Below, one piece after another: positions 34,746 to 47,395 of a stretch of DNA of 47,395 nucleotides (position 1 is its first letter; the number at the start of each line of letters is the position of its first letter). Below the pieces are notes generated by a model. It was not told the DNA's origin. It did not search any database and saw only the letters and a program-made list of their open reading frames with translations. This DNA comes from an uncultured Candidatus Saccharibacteria bacterium (GTDB lineage Bacteria; Patescibacteriota; Minisyncoccia; Phycocordibacterales; UBA918). The stretch spans positions 1 to 47,395 of the forward strand of contig CAZVFY010000006.1 of assembly GCA_964626635.1 (NCBI GenBank), given 5' to 3'. Made by a program: the position numbers and the translations under genes.

Positions 34746-35582
34746 TTAGCGCTCGTCACCATCGTACTGGTGCTGCAATTCGTAGGGATAGTCGGGAGTA
34801 GTAGATAGCTTGCTAGATGCCTGATCACCGTTGCCACCAGGCCCGCCGGCCGCACCACCATCAACTACCAGGGTGTGGCCGTTGATGTAGCTGGAGTAGG
34901 GCGAGCACAAAAACGCAATGGCGTGCGCGATCTCATAAGGCGTACCGCGACGGCCCATCGGTACCATACTGGACACAGAGTCTTCTTTGCCTTCGGTCAT
35001 CTGGGTCGCGATCGGACCGGGGGCGATAGAGTTACAACGCACGCCGTTCGGGGCTTGCTCGGTCGAGAGTGTGCTGGTAAAGGCATGGATGTACGCCTTG
35101 GTGCCGGCGTACGGGGCTTGCATCGGTTGTCCGGCAATCCCCGAGATCGAGCCGATGTTGATCAGTTGTCCACCAGCTTCGTTGCGCGCCAGGTGGGTGA
35201 GGCAAGCCTTAGACATGTGAAAGAGGCTGTACACGTTGTCATGCAGCATCGCCTCAAAGTCCTCGGTCGCAAAATCCACCAGCATCGACGCCCCTTGCAT
35301 CGAACTAGCGTTATTAACCACCACGTCCAGTACGCCGTACGCGTCGTGATGGGCGGCCGCGACTGCCATGGCTGACTCGGCGTCATGCAGCGTAGTGGCG
35401 ACGGTGACAACGTCTTGGTCAAATTGATTTTTAATGAACCCAGCGACATTGTCTAGTCGTTCGCTATCGCGATCCACGAGGGTAAGTTTGGCGCCTGCCT
35501 CGGCTAGGATGTAGGCAGTGGCTTCACCAATGCCCGCGGCGGCACCGGTCAGGATGATGTGTTTGTTTTGTAAATTGAACAT
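34746..35582 (-). CDS. SDR family oxidoreductase
   Basis: [26 protein letters not shown]. Confidence 0.9.
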
Positions 35583-35646
35583 ATAATGTTGAGTAGGTAA
35601 GGTAAGTCGCCGATCACGTGCGTGATCGACGACTTGCGTAAGGGTA

Positions 35647-36168
35647 TTAATCTAAGAGTTGGGTTACCAAGAACACGGTGCGTTCTACGTTTACTACGTT
35701 GGATTCATCAGGTTCTAAAGTTTGCCCAGATAAGTCATCGGTATACCGCCCTGAGACTGAGATCGGTTGACCCTGATTTAGATCAATCTCGACTTCTGAT
35801 TCACCCAGGTCATAGGCGTCGTCAAGATACATCAACACGTTGCCACGGTCTGGAGTGTCAACTCGGAAAAGACGGTCCGACACGACTTCGGTAATGGTTC
35901 CGCCACGAATTTCAATTGGATTATTACCAGTTGGTTGGGTGTCGGTGTCTTCGGTGACATCAAGGGCGACAATGGTATCGTTATCGCCCACATTATCTTG
36001 AACGAACTGATCGGCTTGATCAACGATGTCTACGTTAAGGTCTTGGACCTCGTCGGTATCATCGGCGAATAGTTCGACCAAGAAGAATATTAGTGCGAGT
36101 AGGACGAGTAGCCCAATCAGCCACCCGAGCCATGAATTTGAATCTTGCTTTACTGGTTCACTTGCCAT
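35647..36168 (-). CDS. Acidic membrane-anchored hypothetical protein
   Basis: [18 protein letters not shown] then an Asp-rich beta region. Confidence 0.6.
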
Positions 36169-36206
36169 AAATATTTTGATTAGAGAATAATGTGCTGCAG
36201 AGAGAA

Positions 36207-36977
36207 TTAGCGATTACGGTCAGTTTCTTCCACTTCTATATGTTCTTTTTTGACGGTGTCATGTACATGCGCCTCGTCAGTTTCGACAGACTTTTCTAAG
36301 GTGACGTGTTCTTTGGCCACCGTTTCTTTTTGCACGACCGGTACTTCTTCGCGCACAGTCACCTCGGCAATCGTCTCTTCGCTGTCGATTTCACTACCGG
36401 TAGTGCCATCTGTCACCGGAGTGCGAATGACGCGTACGTGTTCCTTACGCACCGGTACGGTCAGATCAACTGACTCAGTCGTGACGAATTTGTGCAACCG
36501 AACCGTGCCGGACTCGACGCTACGCGTGCCCACCGATACTTCTTCTTCGGACCGGGTGACGCCGTGCTCGTTTATTTTGTCGTGGGTATGATCGTGGTCG
36601 TGTCCGTCAGTATGGGCGGTACCATGGTGATCATCCGAGTGTGCGACAGTGTCGTACGTGAGTCCGTAGTATTCGTACAATGCTCGCTCGTCGGCATCGG
36701 ACAGAATTTGCCCTTCGTCGAAATGCGGTGCATCTTTTACGAATGATCGTTCGTAGCCGGTGTACACGTAGTCGTTGTTACCTTCGTGTACGTAGGCAGA
36801 CTCAATTGGCACGTACGTGTGTTTGGTGCCAAAGAAGCCGGTGGTGGTTTCGATCCAAGTGGGTTGTTTGGTTTGGGTGTCGACGTACAGATTATCGATC
36901 GTACCAATTTTTGTATCAGTGGTATCGTACAAATCTGCGCCAATCCATTTATCGTAGGTATCCATAACTAGTTGCAT
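36207..36977 (-). CDS. PRC-barrel + DUF2382 (YsnF/AvaK-like) protein
   Basis: KIGTIDNLYVD, TGFFGTK..VP, VKDAP, LYEYYG; RSEEEVSVG, GTVRLHKFV, VPVRKE, EEVPVVQKETV.KE. Confidence 0.85.
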   Translation of the reverse strand: MQLVMDTYDKWIGADLYDTTDTKIGTIDNLYVDTQTKQPTWIETTTGFFGTKHTYVPIESAYVHEGNNDYVYTGYERSFVKDAPHFDEGQILSDADERALYEYYGLTYDTVAHSDDHHGTAHTDGHDHDHTHDKINEHGVTRSEEEVSVGTRSVESGTVRLHKFVTTESVDLTVPVRKEHVRVIRTPVTDGTTGSEIDSEETIAEVTVREEVPVVQKETVAKEHVTLEKSVETDEAHVHDTVKKEHIEVEETDRNR

Positions 36978-37178
36978 GAGTTAGATGTGTAATATACCTA
37001 TTCAGTGTCAGTGATGGTATGTACATATTGTACATTTATTAATAATTGTTACAACCATTAGATACGGTATATTCGCATCACAGCAAGAGTGTAAAAAATT
37101 GTCAAATAATCTTGACACTATGTAGTCAATCCTGTCGGGAAGGAATTTGGTATAGTCAGGTATAGCTGTAGCTGCGCA

Positions 37179-37337
37179 ATGAACTCTAAAAGACTCAAAA
37201 GTCCTAAGGAAACAAAGGTTTGCAAACAGTGCCACCGTCCCTTCGAGAACCGCAAGGCGTGGCGATTGCGTGGACAGTGGGACAGTGTGCATTATTGTAG
37301 TCAGCGCTGCCGCAAAGCGGCGAAACCCTCGGGATAA
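37179..37337 (+). CDS. DUF2256 family small Cys4 protein (below the ORF-track cutoff)
   Basis: MNSKRLKSPKETKVCKQCHRPFENRKAWRLRGQWDSVHYCSQRCRKAAKPSG*. Confidence 0.8.
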   Translation: MNSKRLKSPKETKVCKQCHRPFENRKAWRLRGQWDSVHYCSQRCRKAAKPSG

Positions 37338-37383
37338 CGTGCTCGTTTGTAACTGGGAACTAGTGATATACTAGGTTTGAAGT

Positions 37384-38388
37384 ATGCCTAAAGAATCCGA
37401 CATCGAAGCCAAGTTAGCAAAGCTCGCCAAACTTGAACAACTGCTCGCCGAGCAGGGGATTGCGGTGGCGGATGAAGAAGTCGAGTCAGTAATCAAAGAC
37501 ATTGATGATGCTGATGTCGCTGATACTGCCGAGACAAACACCGCACCCACGCCAATTGAAACCACTACAGATAAGGCCGAACCAAAATCGACCCGTCGCA
37601 CCAAACGGGCCGCTGCGAAAACAACCGCCACACCTAAAAAGGCTGAGCGAACCACCACCAAGACAGCAAAAAAACCCGCTCCCAAAAAAGCCAAAACCAC
37701 CAAGCAGCCGAAGTCTGCTAAGGTAAATAAAAGCGAGCCAGAAATCAAATCTCCGTACGCGGCCCCTGTCGCTACGTCTACCACAGAGGCGCCAGTCACC
37801 ATAGCTGCCGCCAGCACAGAAACGAAAGGCAGGAAATCGCCTGGTACAGACTCGGCAACAGCTGGGACGCGAAAAGCGCCCACCAAATTTGGTTCATTAA
37901 AAGAGTCAACTCGCCGTCAAAAAGTTCAGGCGTTAGTAGTCGGTGGGCTACTAGTGGCAGGGATCGGGGCATCAGCTGCGGTAGGGGTGTCGGCTGATAC
38001 TGGGCAAATAGATGTGGCTGCAACCATTCGAGACCGTAACGAACGCATGTCAACAATGGTAGAAGTAGAGGGGCCAGTTACGACAGTGGCCGCGCCTCCG
38101 GTGGTGGCTGATGGTGGATTCGTGGCTGCAGCACCAGAGTTCCAAACAACACAATCACCGCCGGTCGCGATTCCATCAAATCAAGATGATAATACAGCTG
38201 CGTCTACTTCAGCTACTAGCAGTAATGATGCAATCGATAACCAGGTAGATGAATCCGGCGCAGAAACTGACATGATCACTGCAGCGCCCATTGCCACATC
38301 CAGTGCGTCGACGACCCAAGACAATTTATTTATGGAGCCTGCAGCAACGAGCTCTAGTACTGATTTAGTTGAAACCACTAATTATTAA
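37384..38388 (+). CDS. Low-complexity single-pass membrane protein (Lys/Ala/Thr-rich cytoplasmic part)
   Basis: Histone-H1-like KKPAPKKAK stretch, one TM, Ser/Thr/Asp-rich tail. Confidence 0.65.
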   Translation: MPKESDIEAKLAKLAKLEQLLAEQGIAVADEEVESVIKDIDDADVADTAETNTAPTPIETTTDKAEPKSTRRTKRAAAKTTATPKKAERTTTKTAKKPAPKKAKTTKQPKSAKVNKSEPEIKSPYAAPVATSTTEAPVTIAAASTETKGRKSPGTDSATAGTRKAPTKFGSLKESTRRQKVQALVVGGLLVAGIGASAAVGVSADTGQIDVAATIRDRNERMSTMVEVEGPVTTVAAPPVVADGGFVAAAPEFQTTQSPPVAIPSNQDDNTAASTSATSSNDAIDNQVDESGAETDMITAAPIATSSASTTQDNLFMEPAATSSSTDLVETTNY

Positions 38389-38430
38389 TAGTTTGGGCGG
38401 GATGATTCGCATCAGTCACCGACATACAGT

Positions 38431-39756
38431 ATGAGCTCATCAAAAGAATCGCAGGACTACTTAAATCCCCGTGAGAAGAAACTTGTCGCAAGTATGCACG
38501 CGGTGGGAATTTTTGGGGTTATGTTTGGGACACTGGTGTTGGTGACACTCATTTACGATGTTTCAAGAGTCAATCTCGGTGGCATATTATTCCTTGTTAG
38601 TGCATTGGCGGCGCTGCTAATTGCAAAAAATGTATATGACAGCCATTTAGTTGATACGAGCGCTGTTACATTGCGGCCCGCCACCAGTCCCGTCAGCAGC
38701 CAAGTATACGCCCAGTTATACGAGAAAAGCCCGGTTCCATATTTTGTTATTGATGCTACTGGTGACGTAGTGTCTTCCAACATAGCAGCGGGTAGGCTAT
38801 TGGGGCAGCAACAAGCAGTATTACTCAAACAAAATATGTTTCGTAATATTAGCATCAGCTCAGACGAACATAAATCTTTCCTGATCGAAAAGTTTCATAG
38901 CGGTATTGGTATTAGTGATGAGCTAGTTAGTCTCCATAAGCCTGACCATAGCCTGGTCTGGGCTCTGATGTCACTGTTTGCTTTTACTAATAGTAGCGGT
39001 GAGAAACAAGGTCTTATGACACTGGTCGACATTACTAAACAGAAGAAAGCCGAGGATGCCAAAAATGAATTTGTGTCACTGGCATCGCATCAGCTACGGA
39101 CGCCGCTAGCTGGTATGAAGTGGAGTGCCGAGCTCCTGCAAATGGAGAATGAAGAAAGCCTGACTGAGCGTCAGCATAAATATCTCAATCGTCTCTTGGA
39201 AAGCGTCGCGCGCATGGGGGTACTGATTGATGATTTCCTTAGAGTCTCTCGCTTTGAATTGGGTAGTTTTACCCCGGACTACCAAACTATCTCTCTATCA
39301 AAATTAGTCAACAATACCTTAGAGGAACAAAGACAAACTGCAGCAAACAAACAAGTCACGCTTTCAACTGATCTGGATCCTAATATTCTTGACATGGTCA
39401 CTGACCCGAACTTGCTACGCATGATAGTGACGAATCTTGTCTCAAATGCTATTAAATATACTGAGTCTGGTGGGTCGGTCACCTTTACCACTAAATTACA
39501 GGATCAATCAGTGCTTATAGTTGTGTCCGATACTGGTATGGGGATCCCAGATGAAGATCAATCACAAATCTTCACCAAATTATTTCGAGCTCGCAACGCA
39601 GTTCGCAATGTGCCAGACGGTACGGGGCTGGGGTTGTATATAGTACGCGAGGCTGTATCAGTGCTACGCGGACGTGTTACGTTTCAGTCTGAATCTGGTC
39701 GCGGTACCACGTTTGAAGTCGGTCTACCACTGTCTGAGCCAGTCGAAACTGACTAA
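38431..39756 (+). CDS. PAS-domain sensor histidine kinase
   Basis: ASHQLRTPL (H-box), NLVSNAIKY, DTGMGI, GTGLGL. Confidence 0.92.
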   Translation: MSSSKESQDYLNPREKKLVASMHAVGIFGVMFGTLVLVTLIYDVSRVNLGGILFLVSALAALLIAKNVYDSHLVDTSAVTLRPATSPVSSQVYAQLYEKSPVPYFVIDATGDVVSSNIAAGRLLGQQQAVLLKQNMFRNISISSDEHKSFLIEKFHSGIGISDELVSLHKPDHSLVWALMSLFAFTNSSGEKQGLMTLVDITKQKKAEDAKNEFVSLASHQLRTPLAGMKWSAELLQMENEESLTERQHKYLNRLLESVARMGVLIDDFLRVSRFELGSFTPDYQTISLSKLVNNTLEEQRQTAANKQVTLSTDLDPNILDMVTDPNLLRMIVTNLVSNAIKYTESGGSVTFTTKLQDQSVLIVVSDTGMGIPDEDQSQIFTKLFRARNAVRNVPDGTGLGLYIVREAVSVLRGRVTFQSESGRGTTFEVGLPLSEPVETD

Positions 39757-40130
39757 GCTTGAACTTTTTCTTGTACTTTTGTGAGCAGCTCTGACATGCT
39801 CCAGTCAGGTTTGAATAGCACATCCTCCGGCGGCAGCGATACTTTTCCCGCGATGACGTCTCTAGATTCAGAGGCGGTCAGGATCATGATTTTGGCTGTT
39901 TGCCCCCAGTTATCAGCGCGAATCTGTCGGTATACCTCGTACCCATCAATGTCTGGTAAACGAATGTCTAACAGGATTAGGTCTGGCTTTTGGGTTATGG
40001 CCAGCGCCACACCTTCGCTGCCGGTCATAGCGTGCAGGGTGCATAATTGAGCCATGGCCAGCAGATCAATCAATAAGTCCGCTAGGTACGTTGAATCTTC
40101 TATTATTAATACGGTTTTAGTATCACTCAT
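39753..40130 (-). CDS. Single-domain response regulator
   Basis: LIIED, PDLILLD, LTA, FKP; convergent with the kinase. Confidence 0.88.
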   Translation of the reverse strand: MSDTKTVLIIEDSTYLADLLIDLLAMAQLCTLHAMTGSEGVALAITQKPDLILLDIRLPDIDGYEVYRQIRADNWGQTAKIMILTASESRDVIAGKVSLPPEDVLFKPDWSMSELLTKVQEKVQA

Positions 40131-40197
40131 GTAATTAGTATACATTTTATCACCGTTGTGCCTAGCCAAAACTATATTTCACAGGCATTATTGCATC

Positions 40198-41340
40198 ATG
40201 CAACCACGTACCCACGCTGCACTGCTCGAGTATGTTGATACGATTGATCCCATTGCGTACCAACGCACCCGCAACCACCACGATGGTGCTGTCACCAAAT
40301 TGTCCCCGTACATTACCCGCGGCGTCATTACCTTGCCCGAAATCCGCGACCAGCTACTATCACGGCACAGCCCTAAGTCAGCGTATAAATTGGTCCAAGA
40401 ACTCGCCTGGCGAGACTACTTTCAGTTGGTTTGGTGGGAGCGAGGTGATGCGATATTCTCTGATCTACGGTTTGCGCGACCTGACGCGTATGGCGAGGAG
40501 TGGGCGCACCATCAGTTAGTCAGTACGGTTATTGCTGGCAATACCGGTATTCAAGCCATTGACGCGGCGGTGCAGGATCTGTATCAGACAGGCTATATGC
40601 ACAATCATTTCCGAATGTTCGTCGCCAGCCTCGCGTGTAACCTCGCCCGCGCGCATTGGCTGCCGATGGGACAGTGGCTATATTACCATCTGCGCGATGG
40701 TGACCCCGCCAGTAATTTTCTGTCCTGGCAGTGGGTAGCCGGCGCCAGTATCAGCAAACGCTACACCATCAGCCAAAGTCTCATCAATAAGTTCTCTTCC
40801 GCCGAGGAACACCAAGCACATACCTACCTGAGTTTTGACCGTGATGACATGTGCCATATCGCGATACCCGCAGAGCTAACTGGCAGTGAACCAATGACGC
40901 TGACGACACCGTACGACAGAGTATCAATCGACCAGCTACCGGCGCTAGTCGGTCGGCCGGTCGAGCTGTACACGCCGTGGACACTGCGGCCGTTGAAAGA
41001 CGGGGCGGAGTCTGACGCGATCCGCGTACTGCTGATTGATCCAAAGTGGTTTGAGCGCTTGCCAGTATCAGCATCCGTGTTGTCATTTATTGTTGAGCAA
41101 GCGCGTGTCGCCTTGTCTGACGTTGTGGTTCATGTTGGTTCGGTGGCGGATCTTGACCTTGCGAGCGCAGCCAGCATTGCGGCCTGGCGACACCAAACAA
41201 ACCAGGGTGACTATGACTGGTCACATCAGTCAGACGCAACGGTTAATTGGCACGATTGGCCACGATTATTCCCGGCGGTGTCCAGGTATCACAAGTCGTT
41301 CTTTTCTTATTGGAAAGCGGTGGAGAAAGGTCTAAATTAG
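40198..41340 (+). CDS. Photolyase-like protein beginning with the FAD-binding domain (short/inverted-domain type)
   Basis: YQRTRN...VTKLSPYITRG, ELAWRDYF, TGIQAID, GYMHNHFRM, DGDPASN..SWQW, all within the first ~190 aa. Confidence 0.82.
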   Translation: MQPRTHAALLEYVDTIDPIAYQRTRNHHDGAVTKLSPYITRGVITLPEIRDQLLSRHSPKSAYKLVQELAWRDYFQLVWWERGDAIFSDLRFARPDAYGEEWAHHQLVSTVIAGNTGIQAIDAAVQDLYQTGYMHNHFRMFVASLACNLARAHWLPMGQWLYYHLRDGDPASNFLSWQWVAGASISKRYTISQSLINKFSSAEEHQAHTYLSFDRDDMCHIAIPAELTGSEPMTLTTPYDRVSIDQLPALVGRPVELYTPWTLRPLKDGAESDAIRVLLIDPKWFERLPVSASVLSFIVEQARVALSDVVVHVGSVADLDLASAASIAAWRHQTNQGDYDWSHQSDATVNWHDWPRLFPAVSRYHKSFFSYWKAVEKGLN

Positions 41341-41371
41341 AAACTAAGAATTAGCAAATGCTAATTTGAAT

Positions 41372-41453
41372 GTGGAATACTTTGTACCAAGTTAAAACCT
41401 CTTTGATTGAAATGGAGGCACCCAACTTTTTAAAGATTGTTGATTTGTGGTGA
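41372..41453 (+). repeat. Cassette boundary site A (core + right arm)
   Basis: GTGGA-N18-AAACC followed by TCTTTGATTGAAATGGAG...ATTGTTGATTT shared with site B. Confidence 0.7.
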
Positions 41454-41514
41454 TAGAAAGAGTACAGCAATTGTTACTCTCTTGGAGCTTGACGTCTCCT
41501 GTATAATTACAGTA

Positions 41515-42024
41515 ATGGAACATAAACATATTAAGGTTCACAATAAAGCAGGTACTATGGGTCACTCAATGAGTGATTTTTATCCACTTATCGGTATTTT
41601 GTCGGTTGTTGTCGCGTTGACTGCTTTAGGGGTGCACTATTTCACTCAAGATTGGGTGCTGGCCTTTATGGGCTATTTCTTCTTGATCTTCGGCTTGCTC
41701 AAAGTAATACGCATTCGTGGATTTGTTGAGGCGTATCAAATGTACGATCTGCTAGCGAAGCGGAGTAAGACATATGCCTACATCTATCCATTTCTCGAAG
41801 TTGGATTTGGTGTTGCTTACATTCTTGCGTGGCAAGTATCATTAGTTTCAGCTGTAGTAGTCCCTATTATGCTCATTGGTGCACTAGGGGTGTACCTGAA
41901 ACTGCGGGAAGGAGAAGAGATTCCTTGTGCATGTCTGGGGACGGTGTTCAAGGTGCCGATGACCTGGGTGACACTCGGTGAAGATTTGCTGATGGCAGGC
42001 ATGGCAGCAATGCTTTTGCTATAA
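41515..42024 (+). CDS. MauE/DoxX family membrane protein
   Basis: FMGYFFLIFGLLK, F...Y.MYDLLA, YPFLEV, IPCACLG, EDLLM. Confidence 0.8.
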   Translation: MEHKHIKVHNKAGTMGHSMSDFYPLIGILSVVVALTALGVHYFTQDWVLAFMGYFFLIFGLLKVIRIRGFVEAYQMYDLLAKRSKTYAYIYPFLEVGFGVAYILAWQVSLVSAVVVPIMLIGALGVYLKLREGEEIPCACLGTVFKVPMTWVTLGEDLLMAGMAAMLLL

Positions 42025-42032
42025 TTACCTGC

Positions 42033-42422
42033 ATGAAAGTCATCGCTAGCCTAATCCTCACTTTTCTTCTCGGTGCAATGTTCGTGAGTTTGTTCCATAT
42101 GTCGATGGGTATGGATATGACTGGTGGTATGACGGATTGCCCATTTATGATTCACGATGAAGTAATATGTTCAATGAACATCGCTGATCATATAGGGGCG
42201 TGGAAATCAGTGTTCCTGGCTGTTGCTCCAACCCTCGTTCTTCTGCTTGCTGTAGCAGGAGCTGTAGCGTTTGTTGCTTCAGTTGCACCACACCTTTTTG
42301 CGCTCAAGCGCAGGTTGATCCCAATATTGCATAAACAGTTACGAGAACGAACGTACGCTTTTTCATATCGACCACTTCAAGAACTGTTCTCCAGTGGTAT
42401 CCTTCATCCAAAACTGTTTTAG
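42033..42422 (+). CDS. Met/Cys/His-rich hypothetical membrane protein
   Basis: HMSMGMDMTGGMTDCPFM...CSM...HI..WK; ends FSSGILHPKLF. Confidence 0.65.
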   Translation: MKVIASLILTFLLGAMFVSLFHMSMGMDMTGGMTDCPFMIHDEVICSMNIADHIGAWKSVFLAVAPTLVLLLAVAGAVAFVASVAPHLFALKRRLIPILHKQLRERTYAFSYRPLQELFSSGILHPKLF

Positions 42423-42462
42423 TGAGCGCCGTCTCTACTTTATTCAATAACCAAAAATTAAA

Positions 42463-43119
42463 ATGAACAATCAAACTATTTTGGTAGCCATCATTGCTCT
42501 CCTTATCGGGGGTATCGGTGGCTACACTATTGCAGACAAAGGCAAAGCGTACGAACAACGAGGATATAACAAGGAAGCGTCAGAAAATATACCAATGGGT
42601 ATGCACCGTATGCCTGACGGCACCATGATGGGTGATGCTGATACTGGCATGGGAGGTATGGGTCAAATGGATCACATGATGGCGATGATGGTTTCCAGTG
42701 AGCGAGAGTTTATCGAAGGTATGATTCCTCATCATCAAGAAGCGGTAGACACAGCGATGGAGGTTATCGAGCGTGGTGGCACAACACCTGAAATCAAACA
42801 GCTTGTTGAAAACATTGTTGTTGCACAAGAAGCTGAAATAGCAGAAATGAAAAAGTGGTATGAGGACTGGTACGGGGAAGTGTATGTAGACAATGGTGAA
42901 TACACGCCGATGATGCGTGAGTTGGAAAATCTATCGGGAGCAGATATCGACCGAGTCTTTCTTGAAGATATGATTGGGCACCACATGGGAGCGATTATGA
43001 TGGCTCGCAGTGTTCAACCATATGTTGAGCACAATGAGATTGCAGAACTAACTCAAGCAATCGTCTCAACTCAGTCTGCAGAAATCGCACAGATGAGGCA
43101 AATGTTACAAGGTCTCTAG
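42463..43119 (+). CDS. DUF305 (CopM-like) Met/His-rich protein
   Basis: MHRMPDG.MM, FIEGMIPHHQEAV, FLEDMIGHHMGAI.MA, Q.AEI.QM. Confidence 0.88.
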   Translation: MNNQTILVAIIALLIGGIGGYTIADKGKAYEQRGYNKEASENIPMGMHRMPDGTMMGDADTGMGGMGQMDHMMAMMVSSEREFIEGMIPHHQEAVDTAMEVIERGGTTPEIKQLVENIVVAQEAEIAEMKKWYEDWYGEVYVDNGEYTPMMRELENLSGADIDRVFLEDMIGHHMGAIMMARSVQPYVEHNEIAELTQAIVSTQSAEIAQMRQMLQGL

Positions 43120-43140
43120 GGAATAAACTTGCTAGATATA

Positions 43141-43298
43141 CAAAAACCGCTTGAATAAGCGGTTTTTGTTTTGGAGCAGAACTTCCATATTCTTCTAAAT
43201 ATTTCCATGTCTGGTGGAGCAGTTTGCTGGAGGTAAGAACCTCTTTGATTGAAATGGAGTGTGCAAATTTCTTGAAAATTGTTGATTTATGGAAATGA
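43141..43298 (+). repeat. Cassette boundary site B (terminator + left arm + core + right arm)
   Basis: CAAAAACCGCTT..AAGCGGTTTTTG hairpin; ATTCTTCTAAATATTTCCATGT (43189-210); GTGGA-N18-GAACC (43214-41); right arm shared with site A. Confidence 0.7.
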
Positions 43299-43409
43299 TT
43301 CACTAGTACTTGACCTTCTGCTTGGTTGAGATCCTAAACTTTCAGGCGCTTAAGGCTAGGACTAGAAACTATATTCTGTGCTATTTTTGTTATGCTAGTA
43401 TTAATAGAT

Positions 43410-43628
43410 ATGGAAATCTTAAAAAAGATATTTTGGGACAAGCCAGAGTCACGTCTTGGTGTAGGAATACTAGTTGGTGCTGCTATTGGTATCGGTATGG
43501 ATAACATTGGTGCAGGAATTGCTATTGGAGTGGCAATCGGTGTCGCTATGTACACCACTAGGAAGAAAACAGAAAAAGAAAGTCCCTTGGACGAAGATGA
43601 GGTTCAAATTAACAACGATAAGGTATAA
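43410..43628 (+). CDS. Small glycine-zipper-like membrane protein
   Basis: GVGILVGAAIGIGMDNIGAGIAIGVAIG. Confidence 0.6.
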   Translation: MEILKKIFWDKPESRLGVGILVGAAIGIGMDNIGAGIAIGVAIGVAMYTTRKKTEKESPLDEDEVQINNDKV

Positions 43629-43636
43629 ATTTAAAT

Positions 43637-43762
43637 ATGGAAAACATCGTATACATTCTTAGTTGGGGTTCACCGCTTGGCATTGGACTCTTCTTGTTCT
43701 TGTTAGCCGCTGGCGCAGGTATCTTTTTTTGGGGAGTGTCTCATCTTAATCAAGATAAATAG
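43637..43762 (+). CDS. 41-aa membrane peptide (below the ORF-track cutoff)
   Basis: MENIVYILSWGSPLGIGLFLFLLAAGAGIFFWGVSHLNQDK*, tightly packed between its neighbours. Confidence 0.55.
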   Translation: MENIVYILSWGSPLGIGLFLFLLAAGAGIFFWGVSHLNQDK

Positions 43763-43764
43763 CT

Positions 43765-44688
43765 ATGCGAGCAGTGCTGGCTGATGATTACGGACCACCG
43801 GAAGTATTGCGTGTTGCGGAAGTTGCCAAGCCATCACCAAAGAAAAACGAGATTTTGATCAAGGTGAAAGCTGCGTCACTTAACTCAGCTGATGTGCGTA
43901 TTCGTGCGCTCGATAGCGGTGACGGCATAAAAGGTGTGCTGGCAAAGATTGTGTTGCGTCTTATGCTTGGCCTCCGAAAACCAAAGCAAATTCACGGTAG
44001 TGTGTTGGCTGGAGTAGTAGAAGAAGCAGGAAGCGAAACGACACGTTTTAAAGTTGGTGATGAAATATACGCTATGACTGGACTCAGCTTCGGTGCATTT
44101 GCAGACTATTGTGCGTTGTCAGATAAGCGAGCGATGGCGTTGAAACCAAAGACAGCGGGTTTCGAAGAAGCTAGTGCGTTACCGTTTGGCGGGAATACTG
44201 CTCTCTACTTCTAGCGTAAAGCTGGGGTGAGTGAAGGTAAGAAGGTTTTAATTTATGGTTCGACTGGAGCAGTCGGGTCGTCTGCCGTGCAGGTCGCAAA
44301 ATATCTCGGTGCTGAGGTAGTAGCGGTTAGTGGACCAGATGGCATGGAATTAACGAGAGAGTTAGGTGCGACAAAGGTGTACAACTACCGAGAAACTTTA
44401 CTAGAAGACATCGAAGGTGCGTTTGACGTGGTGTTTGATGCAGTTGGCAAGGCAACTAAATCTAAAGCAGAACATTTGCTCGCAGAGAATGGGCAATACA
44501 CAACTGTCGATAGTCTTGATGTATCGAAAGAAACTTCTTCAGACCTTGAAGAGCTGGCTCAGATGTATGACGAAGGTTCGTTGGTCGCTACTGTCGACAA
44601 AACTTTTGATCTTGATGAAATTGTGGAAGCAAGTCGATATGTAGATTCAGGAAGAAAGAAGGGGAGTGTAGTGATGCGTATTTCGTAG
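43765..44688 (+). pseudogene. NAD(P)-dependent MDR/quinone oxidoreductase interrupted by one in-frame TAG (44212-14)
   Basis: ORFs 43765..44214 and 44227..44688 are in the same frame; ...TALYF*RKAGVSEGKKVLIYGSTGAVG. Confidence 0.8.
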
Positions 44689-44702
44689 CCACAACAGTGT
44701 AG

Positions 44703-45062
44703 TTATTGCTTCACCGAATGCAACATCAAATCGTTGCCATCTGGATCAGTAAACAGCGCCATAAAACAGACAGGGTTCTCGATGGTTGGAGCTAGGAATT
44801 CTACCCCTCGTTCTTCCAGCTCTTTACGAGCGGCTTCAATATCATCTGTATGAAGGGCAATATGCGCACCTTTTTGCGGTGTAAATGACATGCCCATTTT
44901 CTCTGGTTCCCAAATCGCAAAACAAGTGTCGCCGACCCAAAATTCTGTCTCGGCTTTTTCATCTGGTCGCAGACCGAGGGTTTCCACATAAAATTTCCTC
45001 GAGCGTTCTACGTTTGTTGATGGTATTCCAATAAAGTCTAATTTTGTAATCTGATTTTTCAT
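44703..45062 (-). CDS. VOC/glyoxalase family protein
   Basis: RSRKFYVETLGL, DDIEAARKELEERGV, FTDPDGN. Confidence 0.85.
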   Translation of the reverse strand: MKNQITKLDFIGIPSTNVERSRKFYVETLGLRPDEKAETEFWVGDTCFAIWEPEKMGMSFTPQKGAHIALHTDDIEAARKELEERGVEFLAPTIENPVCFMALFTDPDGNDLMLHSVKQ

Positions 45063-45095
45063 AATATGTAAATTAAATGGCAATAAAGATATGTA

Positions 45096-45731
45096 CTAAT
45101 TCTTGCTAATATCTCGCGCGAGAGTAAAGAACCAGAGGATTTGACTAATTATAAAAATCCCGATTCCTATATCTGCGAGGTAGGGCAGGGCTGAGATAGT
45201 TCCTCCGATAAAAACCAATGTACCAAGGATGCTTGTAGCCATTCCACTAAAGCGTGCCTTGTACATCGCGAGACTTACAAGTCCGGTAAAGACTCCTCCC
45301 ATTAGTTCATTACCTCCACCAAGAGCATCGCCGATAATGTTGATTGACTGCCAGGCTGAGGCAAGCTCATTAGCAGCAGTTCCATTCATGAGAAGGGTGG
45401 TGACTGCCATGGAGATAAACCCGCTGGCAATAAGGATCGTTGCCCAGATCACACCGGTAATTAAACTAAGGAGGCCAAGAGCTGGTTGCTGATTCTTGAG
45501 TTTCAAATATAGATAGGTCGCAAGCAGAATAATTCCAAATGAGAATATAATATATATATGTAGCGTGGTGATGTGAACTAGGACGGAGTTGTTGCTAATA
45601 ATAGTAAGCTGTTCAGTGGCTGACGTTGCACTGTCGTACTTTAATAATCGTAGATATACGAATATACCGCCGATATAAGATAGTCCGCCGTATACCGCGC
45701 TTACGGCGGCGAATTTTTTGAAAAGTGTCAT
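45096..45731 (-). CDS. DUF4386-like multi-TM protein
   Basis: IWATILIASG, ALGGGNELMGG, QILWF. Confidence 0.6.
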   Translation of the reverse strand: MTLFKKFAAVSAVYGGLSYIGGIFVYLRLLKYDSATSATEQLTIISNNSVLVHITTLHIYIIFSFGIILLATYLYLKLKNQQPALGLLSLITGVIWATILIASGFISMAVTTLLMNGTAANELASAWQSINIIGDALGGGNELMGGVFTGLVSLAMYKARFSGMATSILGTLVFIGGTISALPYLADIGIGIFIISQILWFFTLARDISKN

Positions 45732-45750
45732 ATAAAAAGTATACCAAAAT

Positions 45751-45832
45751 AAAAAACCTACTCGAGAGTAAGTTTTTCATTCTTCTATATATTTCTATGT
45801 TTTTGTGGACATAGTGAGTAAAACTTTAAACC
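45751..45832 (+). repeat. Cassette boundary site C (hairpin + left arm + core)
   Basis: AAAAACCTACTC..GAGTAAGTTTTT hairpin; ATTCTTCTATATATTTCTATGT (45779-800, 20/22 match to site B); GTGGA-N18-AAACC (45805-32). Confidence 0.65.
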
Positions 45833-46014
45833 CACTAAAAACCTACTTGGAATCATTCTGGGAGTACTACAACGGTTCAGTTAAGCTACAAAATGTCCTT
45901 GCGGCGCAATAGTTTCATCAGGTTTTGTAGCCACAAGGTAAGTATTGAACCTTGTAGTAAAGATGTAACGCGCGTGACCATTGACATTTACTGCAATATG
46001 TGATACATATATGC

Positions 46015-46915
46015 AATCGCAAGAACGGAGCCAGACATGGAGCGATTATGAGTGAACAGTGCGGGGAGAGAAACGATCTCGGCACTGACACAAAACCTGA
46101 AAGTTGAGTCGCGAGCGCGACAACGCTGGAGGGACGATCGTGGAGGATAGGTATGCAAAAAGCCTCCGCGGTGACACCGCCCAACCCCCTTTAGCGAAGG
46201 ACTGGGGTAATGGGTAAAATGCAGAGAAGAAAAAAGGATGTCCTTTGGGTCGCTGCAGTCGTCCAACAACTACCGACACTGCACAGCATTGTGTTTGCAG
46301 CACGATGTATGACCTACTCGAGAGGTTTTGTCGCCTCGAGTGCAAACGCTGCGATGTGCTGCTTATGGAAGTAGTTACTTATACAAATAAGTGACGGAGG
46401 TAAGCAGTACTGACCGGAAGACAGGCAGTCTTCTTTCCCTGAGCTAGCTTGGGTTCTGAGGAGATTGAGGATGGTGTATCGCCCATCGCTCGCATCGGCA
46501 GATGTGAGAGTAGTCAGATTCTTGACACGGGAATCGGGCCAGGTAGCAGGATGCTAGGTGACGGCGAGTTTAGAGCGGTATGAACATGTGTTCAATCACT
46601 GTATGTATCCTCGACTGTTGCGACAACGCTGCGTTGGTATAAAGCGTGCATCGATAAGACCCAACCAAACTAAAGAGCGACAATCCCAAGCTCGTGTTCG
46701 AACAGGGATAGCTTCATGTCAATACGATCGACAGGGAAGTGCGGTTGCCAGCCACGTTAGTTAAAAAACTGCTGGATACTCCAGGGTGAGCCCCTGGCGG
46801 AAGGAACGCCCTTTCGTTATCAAGACAGTACATATAAAATGCGCCCGCCGTGGGGCTACCACACGGATAACCCAACCCCTCAAGTAACAGTTAGGCTGAC
46901 TTGAGGGGTTTTTAT
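46015..46915 (+). ncRNA. Candidate large (~0.9 kb) highly structured non-coding RNA (GOLLD size class; family unassigned)
   Basis: No credible ORF; TTGACA at 45981; about 20 local helices with G-U pairs favouring the + strand; long-range complementarities; terminator at 46874-46913. Confidence 0.7.
46874..46913 (+). terminator. Intrinsic terminator
   Basis: AACCCCTCAAGT / ACTTGAGGGGTT perfect 12-bp stem plus TTT. Confidence 0.8.
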
Positions 46916-46919
46916 AAGA

Positions 46920-46948
46920 TTGACATATAGTCATTTATATGCTACTCT
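46920..46948 (+). promoter_or_regulatory. Sigma70-like promoter of ppdK
   Basis: TTGACA-17-TACTCT with TG extension. Confidence 0.6.
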
Positions 46949-47013
46949 ATGTTTAGAAAGTGGGTTCCTTGAAAACTCATGAATCAAACCAATCAAACAA
47001 ATAGGAGGGTTCG

Positions 47014-47395
47014 ATGCTCGCAGCATCTACTCAGGGTCGTTCGCGCACCGTGGCCAAGATGGGTCACAATGCGCGTCGACGGCTAATCGTCCCGACGTGG
47101 GGCGATCTTGGCACCACCTCCTACACGCTGGGAGGAAAGGGTCACGGGATCACTCGACTGGCGGCGCTCGGTTTGCCGACGCCGCCAGCGCTCGTGATCT
47201 CGACATCGCTCTGCCGAAGCTACCAGGAGACCGGTCAGTTCCCCAAGCGGTTCAACACCCAGCTTGAGCGCGAACTTAAAGCGCTCGAGCATAAGACCGG
47301 GAAACGCTTCGGCGACCCGGACAATCCGCTCCTCGTGTCGGTGCGTTCCGGGGCCATGATCTCCATGCCGGGGATGATGGAAACGGTGCTGAATG
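47014..47395 (+). CDS. ppdK: Pyruvate phosphate dikinase, N-terminal part (runs off the window)
   Basis: AGGAGG SD; LGGKG, GLPTPP, GKRFGDPDNPLLVSVRSGAMISMPGMMETVLN. Confidence 0.88.
   Translation, partial: MLAASTQGRSRTVAKMGHNARRRLIVPTWGDLGTTSYTLGGKGHGITRLAALGLPTPPALVISTSLCRSYQETGQFPKRFNTQLERELKALEHKTGKRFGDPDNPLLVSVRSGAMISMPGMMETVLN

Follow-up and report, generated by a model that had tools for sequence, protein, structure and literature searches.

What occupies the largest stretch without genes and without ribosomal RNA (rRNA) in the compact genome of an uncultured Candidatus Saccharibacteria bacterium? The question is raised by positions 45732-47013 of a contig of 47,395 bases (label C6), which in its full length is the window analysed here and supplies all coordinates; the host genome is referred to as G000, and C1, C4, C7, C9, C11 and C15 are other contigs of it. 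The assembly comprises 841 kb (0.84 Mb) in 17 contigs, its completeness is rated at 100%, and about 92% of it is coding by the estimate of a crude gene caller for which the long open reading frames (ORFs) of the genome itself served as training set. In the ranking of that gene caller the gap of 1,282 bases, bounded by two genes, is number two in size among the ORF-free gaps of the assembly. The largest gap as well as the third and fourth are 23S, 16S and 23S rRNA, respectively, so that 45732-47013 is the largest non-rRNA gap. We think that the best answer, to which we give a probability of about one half, is that the plus strand of 46016-46915 encodes an island-borne structured non-coding RNA of about 900 nt, which has its own promoter-like box and terminator and belongs to no known family.

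All tests that were run agree that the region is non-coding. An earlier note on this DNA, made from the sequence alone, had described about 1 kb without a credible ORF, and this description holds: the longest ORFs in 45732-47013 are three overlapping minus-strand frames of 88-99 amino acids, which lie on the pyrimidine-rich strand. Another genetic code was rejected for the unit, because TAA, TAG and TGA are each present in every frame and no single stop reassignment therefore opens a frame in the region. The note had also named a decayed protein gene as the finding that would speak against an RNA. Such a gene left no sign in Pfam, in large protein searches or in codon usage, and no protein similarity was detected in the translated frames. 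At E <= 10, Pfam had no family for any of six read-through frames, in which stops were written as X. Large protein libraries were searched with three of these frames: phmmer with one of them returned no match among 1.84 billion protein representatives, and word-seeded HMMER searches with two further frames, in which the candidates were limited to proteins of 234-748 amino acids, gave none at E <= 0.01. A tblastx search against the organism's own genome yielded nothing below E = 0.76. Codon log-odds over 45775-46975 are negative in six of six frames, as opposed to values of about +4 to +20 over most of the length of the flanking genes in their own frame.

The candidate RNA is framed by two signals that had been pointed out before and that were both confirmed. 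At 45981-46015 on the plus strand, a promoter-like site combines a perfect -35 box, TTGACA (45981-45986), with a weak -10 box, TACATA, after a spacing of 17 nt; TACATA, without the T at position 6, fails a consensus promoter scan, which omits the site. At the other end, 46874-46915 on the plus strand, a perfect 12-bp G+C-rich stem (AACCCCTCAAGT/ACTTGAGGGGTT, 46874-46885/46899-46910) with an inner 4-bp stem is followed by TTTTTAT, and the stem has a predicted pair probability of 0.97. The T run is found on the plus strand only; on the minus-strand side the stem is followed by TTGGGTT. A consensus terminator scan skipped this structure because its loop is longer than 8 nt. We infer the ends of the RNA from the promoter-like box and the terminator, and the sequence between them would then be a self-contained transcription unit that starts at the TTGACA box, ends at a strong intrinsic terminator and yields a hairpin-rich non-coding RNA of about 900 nt. 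The unit is present in a single copy in the genome, which speaks against an identity as a repeat, a diversity-generating retroelement (DGR) or a miniature inverted-repeat transposable element (MITE).

The comparison with shuffled sequences that the earlier note had proposed comes out in favour of a structured RNA. The plus strand of 46016-46915 has a minimum free energy (MFE) of -327.2 kcal/mol versus -286.3 +/- 8.3 kcal/mol for 60 dinucleotide shuffles (z = -4.91), and none of the 60 shuffles attains the native energy. For the minus strand, z = -3.81 was obtained in the same way, and another run with 20 shuffles resulted in z = -4.78 (plus) and -3.25 (minus). As controls served five coding pieces of 900 nt from the same contig, with z between -1.29 and +1.04, and a 900-nt stretch of the organism's 16S rRNA, with z = -3.16. 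Sliding windows of 300 nt reach z = -2.1 to -4.3 for the five that start at 45900-46350 and -3.8 at 46650, whereas the values for the upstream coding DNA range from about -2.5 to +1.4. Also the claim that G-U pairs favour the plus strand was borne out: among pairs with p >= 0.8, 23 of 165 are G-U on the plus strand and 6 of 122 on the minus strand. This bias fits an RNA that is read from the plus strand and does not fit DNA palindromes.

Most of the local helices that had been listed from the sequence are part of the predicted MFE fold with probabilities of 0.9-1.0, among them 46057-62/46082-87, 46137-46/46163-72 and 46489-96/46501-08, and three turned out to be weaker (46781-86/46792-97 with 0.52, 46798-804/46810-16 with 0.74 and 46848-52/46862-66 with 0.54). 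The best-supported local domain, 46356-46410 on the plus strand (p 0.97-0.98), is predicted as an 11-bp helix (46356-66/46400-10) around a 9-bp hairpin (46374-82/46387-95) with an ACAA loop. Further plus-strand hairpins with helix probabilities of 0.95-0.99 are predicted at 46489-508, 46513-39 and 46558-621, in the block 46492-46704 that is discussed below. Nested long-range helices, for example 46034-43/46711-20 with p = 1.0, dominate the predicted fold. From the long-range pairs suggested earlier, TTGGGTC/GACCCAA is contained in the MFE fold, GTATCC/GGATAC and TCTTGA/TCAAGA are absent from it, and such pairs as a class do not exceed chance. The GGCA loop at 46497-46500, which had been taken for a GNRA loop, is not one, as its third base is C.

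A short repeated motif was observed in the candidate RNA as well. The 12-mer GCGACAACGCTG is present twice, at 46117-46128 and 46620-46631. The first copy (46117-46126) forms a 3-bp hairpin with an ACAA loop in the MFE fold, the second copy is absorbed by other helices, and a third ACAA loop caps the hairpin 46374-46395.

Evidence for transcription comes from four runs of one microbial-mat sample in a single study, two of DNA and two of the metatranscriptome (39 and 36 million letters), whose contigs were compared with the window over 35396-47395 (12 kb). Contigs from the two metatranscriptome runs cover 46071-46426, 46416-46539 and 46510-46704 at depths of 2.9-14.6, and apart from these the 12 kb contain only two RNA contigs, with lengths of 194 and 168 nt (depths 5 and 2.2). 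An identical 195-nt contig, 46510-46704, was assembled with 0 differences from one DNA run (X2) and from both RNA runs (X3 and X4). For 45981-46070 and 46705-46915 there is no RNA contig, from which nothing follows for or against their transcription. The RNA contig ends 46510 and 46704 coincide with DNA contig ends and are therefore to be read as branch points of the assembly graph, not as ends of the RNA. Overall, the expression support for the unit is weak to moderate.

The same sample provides natural variants of the unit, at least three in number: the type seen in the window, one of about 95% identity and one for which a hand alignment of a loose contig end gives about 60% identity after 46282. 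RNA contigs also stem from a variant allele with 6 differences and from a more diverged variant, and since variants coexist, the DNA graph is broken into short contigs from 46033 to the contig end. The listed differences in 46328-46539 include 10 substitutions, half of which keep the predicted pair: those at 46358, 46428 and 46458 convert G-U to A-U, that at 46440 converts U-G to C-G, and that at 46491 converts C-G to U-G. At 46361, G>A costs a strong helix one G-C pair, two of the remaining listed substitutions break a weak 2-bp helix, and two are unpaired. A TA insertion behind 46379, the sole indel, enlarges a hairpin loop together with 46384 C>A and leaves the 9-bp stem intact. Four of the 10 substitutions fall on the 27 of 212 bases that are in G-U pairs. 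Among the differences listed, none lies between 46492 and 46948, and the plus-strand block 46492-46704 is thus a stretch of at least 213 nt without a listed difference, with the variants about 5% apart on either side. Third codon positions account for 14 of the first 18 differences listed for the neighbouring gene (47034-47235); for the RNA region, the variant positions are distributed 5, 1 and 4 over the codon phases, with no significant periodicity overall. The 3' end of the unit differs between sample contigs in a modular way. One DNA contig skips 46716-46795, which hold three peripheral hairpins and leaves a 46715-46796 junction, and in another DNA contig, from X2, the sequence from 46911 onward follows a different terminator hairpin.

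The unit is located in a mobile context. The host gene for transfer-messenger RNA (tmRNA) is found on the minus strand at the very start of contig C4 (C4:49-466), and its 3' end is the insertion point of one strain-variable element or of several in tandem. A reverse-complement copy of the native tmRNA downstream flank at 45737-45812 contains the last tmRNA bases, a conserved AT-rich stretch and a terminator hairpin (minus strand); it represents a displaced target fragment at the left edge of the inserted element. In blastn searches this copy matches short stretches in the relatives G008, G016 and G004, and in G016 and G008 these lie beside the tmRNA gene. A second flank copy exists at 43140-43219 and a further copy at 41370-41376. 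An X2 DNA contig runs from window position 45809 into the 3' part of the tmRNA gene and represents the empty site. A further contig links C4:26-48 with window position 41370 and thereby connects the two element ends, a junction that fits a circular form or another order of segments. Left of 45809 the DNA is covered at a depth of 22-28, in the unit at one of 10-13, and this drop indicates that about half of the population carries the insert. The unit starts about 200 nt inside the left end of the element, and its location in a variable element explains its absence from congeners.

According to PMC4383910, the 3' end of tRNA and tmRNA genes is a classic target of genomic islands, the edge of which is marked by a displaced copy of the flank. 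A displaced target fragment, an intact tmRNA gene and an empty site were all found here, and the element thereby resembles Islander/TIGER-type islands in its target, its flank copy and its empty-site junction. The cargo of such islands is normally made up of protein genes, and a 0.9-kb RNA sets this element apart from them. No integrase was found for the element in the assembled DNA, where the one PF00589 gene is on contig C1 and is not tied to it. Phage genes tied to the element were not found in its assembled part, either. The DNA that links C6 with the start of C4 is missing from the assembly, and the far end of the element with it.

Adjacent to the unit, the note had described a cassette array. 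The tandem segments are indeed there, and their boundaries proved to be copies of the tmRNA downstream flank. The variable island array at the tmRNA gene extends over 41370-45812, and its segments are bounded by the tmRNA 3' end and flank copies. A 79-nt direct repeat (75% identical, 41372-41450 and 43214-43292) forms the left ends of neighbouring segments; it includes a GGAG box, in the first copy also the TTG start of a MauE-like gene. Judged by this shared left end, the two segments seem to be related elements. One variable segment holds a zinc-type alcohol dehydrogenase gene that is split into 43765-44214 (ADH_N) and 44227-44688 (ADH_zinc_N) and is thus broken or frameshifted. The left neighbour of the ORF-free gap is a gene for a DUF4386-type membrane protein on the minus strand (45096-45731). 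On its right, a pyruvate phosphate dikinase gene begins on the plus strand (47014-47395; Pfam PPDK_N, E = 8.2e-10); the contig end cuts it after its 5' part, and the rest is not in the assembly. No cargo of the element is known besides the unit and this gene, which occurs in 2 of 61 genus genomes, counting G000. Its G+C content is above that of the surroundings, and coexisting variants diverge by about 5%, mostly at third positions. Judging from these sequence features, it was probably acquired with the element.

The search for known families was negative throughout the unit. At gathering score, Rfam has no match on the whole contig, and when 4227 Rfam families were run over 45700-47050 at E <= 10, seven chance-level matches (E 0.49-7.4) were obtained, none of them within the unit. 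For the GOLLD model RF02032 (conserved 3' domain, 416 positions, gathering score 150 bits), 50 candidates were scored across the whole genome, and none gave a match at E <= 10. The ROOL model RF03087 (574 positions, 99.1 bits) and the OLE model RF01071 (616 positions, 50 bits) gave none at E <= 10 either, and the control genomes were likewise without a match to these two, so that they do not attest the sensitivity of the ROOL search. For group-II-D1D4-1 (RF01998) there were only matches with E > 4 elsewhere in the genome. A group I or II intron, RNase P RNA, tmRNA and rRNA can therefore be dismissed as identities of the unit, in agreement with the note, which had seen no hallmarks of any of them; RNase P RNA is encoded on contig C7, tmRNA on C4, and rRNA genes are on C9, C11 and C15. 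The Rfam check that had been suggested for GOLLD, ROOL, OLE, introns, RNase P and tmRNA thus returned nothing in the unit, and the proposal of a divergent GOLLD-like RNA finds no support, as the unit is not GOLLD-like by any test run. The alternative half of that proposal, a new large RNA, survives in part: the unit is non-coding, bounded, well folded, biased to plus-strand G-U pairs and covered by RNA contigs, but its nested long-range architecture stays within chance.

To our knowledge, large structured bacterial RNAs without a known function are very few and comprise GOLLD, ROOL, OLE and raiA. A word search of open-access papers brought up no description of a large RNA from such bacteria or from tmRNA islands. 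OLE is a large structured RNA as well, of about 600 nt; it is a chromosomal RNA of extremophilic Firmicutes that has protein partners, whereas the unit described here is an accessory, strain-variable locus. The closest parallels are with GOLLD and ROOL. In the passages of PMC12286853 that describe them, many GOLLD members exceed 800 nt, which is comparable to the approximately 900 nt of the unit; both RNAs are borne on phages or prophages near tRNA genes, ROOL is presented as a large non-coding RNA that acts as RNA only and is found near tRNA islands, and both were recently shown to build RNA-only cages. The phage or prophage location of GOLLD near tRNA genes may have a counterpart in the element at the tmRNA gene, and its conserved 3' region and more variable 5' region in the sample variants, which differ in 46328-46491 and not in 46492-46704. 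On the other hand, no phage genes were seen near the unit in the partly assembled element, its predicted fold has neither GNRA loops nor a structure supported by covariation, and its host is a tiny-genome bacterium from a microbial mat. With ROOL, as far as the same passages go, the unit would share the genomic lifestyle of a large RNA borne on a mobile element, and it differs in size (574 model positions versus about 900 nt).

If the RNA is functional, as we infer, the unit would be autonomous cargo of the mobile island that adjoins the pyruvate phosphate dikinase gene, comparable to a phage 'moron', which it resembles in having its own promoter-like box and terminator. The product might then act as a structured RNA itself, as a scaffold or decoy that serves the mobile element in the way of the GOLLD and ROOL lifestyle. 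This is our best guess at the mode of action, although we regard it as rather unlikely by itself, and a role as a base-pairing regulator seems less likely still. That the RNA works like GOLLD or ROOL is a guess that is based only on its size and its mobile context.

The main rival reading, possible though on balance unlikely, takes 46016-46915 for a non-functional spacer, a piece of decayed or junk DNA at the end of a recently acquired island. Its transcription would be incidental and due to a box that looks like a promoter by chance, and its good folding energy and its terminator would be left over, for example, from former terminators, recombination sites or a dead gene. Several findings point in this direction and weigh against a structured RNA. 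To begin with, the unit is an orphan for which no homologue was found outside the sample. With blastn, 127 other genomes of the genus as well as samples of 400 genomes of the order and 400 of the phylum gave chance-level matches only, including one 43-nt match inside an ORF in the phylum sample. A single-sequence covariance model of 46486-46624 recovered only the sequence itself in 128 genus genomes (G000 included) and 151 genomes of the class. Phage and plasmid collections contained no match to the unit, three 20-mers found nothing in viral contigs, and 20-mer scans of genome and metagenome contig collections gave one chance match each, both in coding DNA. A search across related bacteria and phages, as the note had suggested, thus brought up no relatives by any of these methods, and without homologues no helix has covariation support. 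The unit is also part of a variable element and has a split gene near it, the alcohol dehydrogenase at 43765-44688, which is a sign of gene decay in the neighbourhood. However, 1.28 kb of junk would be unusual in a genome that is about 92% coding, and a dead gene has to be reconciled with the lack of protein similarity in any tested frame. Two details do fit such a gene: a post-hoc split of the variant positions gives two single-phase runs (46358/46361/46397/46424, then 46425-46491), which would fit a frameshifted minus-strand coding remnant, a weak point given that the split was chosen afterwards, and the minus frame concerned has the least negative codon score (-1.9).

The predicted structure likewise cuts both ways. 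There are 30 native pairs with a span of at least 300 and p >= 0.8, compared with 14 +/- 15 in shuffles, 3 of 22 of which reach 30, and the 165 high-confidence pairs compare with 96.5 +/- 43 in shuffles, 2 of 22 of which are higher. As shuffles attain similar long-range pairs and pair totals, trust should be limited to the strong local hairpins. GNRA tetraloops are missing among the 21 hairpin loops of the MFE fold. The 300-nt piece 46500-46799, into which most of the variant-invariant block 46492-46704 falls, shows no local folding signal (z = +0.22), and z = -4.96 was obtained for 46950-47249, the 5' part of the neighbouring gene, so that z is not specific by itself. Against a spacer, the z of -4.9 for the unit is beyond that of the 16S piece and of all five coding controls, the one-strand G-U bias is unexpected for dead DNA palindromes, and a block of at least 213 nt is without a listed variant difference between flanks that are about 5% divergent. 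By these folding models the energy signal is real, and among the predicted elements the strong local hairpins deserve trust. The RNA contigs are of limited help in the decision, because they come from one sample, carry no information on strand, ends or level and could result from DNA carry-over; also their depths of 2.9-14.6 are of the same order as those of the two other RNA contigs (5 and 2.2).

An improbable explanation is that the region regulates the pyruvate phosphate dikinase gene as its long leader or attenuator; transcription would start at 45981, and the structured RNA would set the read-through at 46874-46915 into the gene. The gene is on the same strand directly downstream, and the pairing of the RNA region with this gene is kept in sample variants, in which contigs span 46675-47030 and 46796-47033. 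However, the gene is preceded, downstream of the terminator, by a second promoter-like site on the plus strand (46920-46948; TTGACA, 17 nt, TACTCT, with a ATTGACAT box at 46919-46926 similar to the box of the unit), from which the gene may have a start of its own. A leader of 900 nt would be several times the size of known riboswitch leaders, and no Rfam riboswitch or leader family matches. Moreover, the X2 contig with the other terminator hairpin at 46911 indicates that the gene can sit behind another upstream sequence, and in the only other genus genome that has the gene (G009, 49% identity) no similar sequence is found upstream. We consider it very improbable that the unit encodes small proteins or an unusually read gene. 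Short plus-strand ORFs do exist (e.g. 46210-46374 with 54 amino acids and 46558-46764 with 68 amino acids), but codon log-odds are negative in every frame, the protein searches gave no homologues, all three stops occur in every frame so that no single reassignment helps, and the flanking genes are read normally under table 11.

We thus favour an island-borne structured RNA, and its wider meaning depends on how far this holds. It would be a long shot to see in it the founding member of a new class of island-borne large structured RNAs in ultra-small bacteria of the Candidate Phyla Radiation (CPR) type, which would act as an RNA-only machine or cage that is unrelated to GOLLD and ROOL in sequence and fold and would have 46492-46704 as its functional core. 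An unrelated new example would enlarge the small set of large structured bacterial RNAs, and such RNAs would be shown to travel as island cargo outside phages, in a compact host with a 0.84-Mb genome in which 1.3 kb of non-coding DNA are hard to call slack. If the region is instead a transcribed remnant, it would serve as a warning that even a z near -5 together with a promoter box, a terminator and coverage by RNA-seq does not guarantee a conserved RNA.

Some further observations concern other RNAs of this genome. The model of the small bacterial signal recognition particle RNA (RF00169) has no match at E <= 0.001 in the genome rated as 100% complete, in which RNase P RNA and tmRNA were found. 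On contig C15, bases 609-1237 are also ORF-free and match no Rfam family. The preceding bases of that contig, C15:1-608, belong to the 23S rRNA gene, which is spread over contig ends and continues with C11:1-1829. Its 3' part aligns 1,243 model positions with 1,829 bases and thus contains about 590 extra bases, an insertion or intron.

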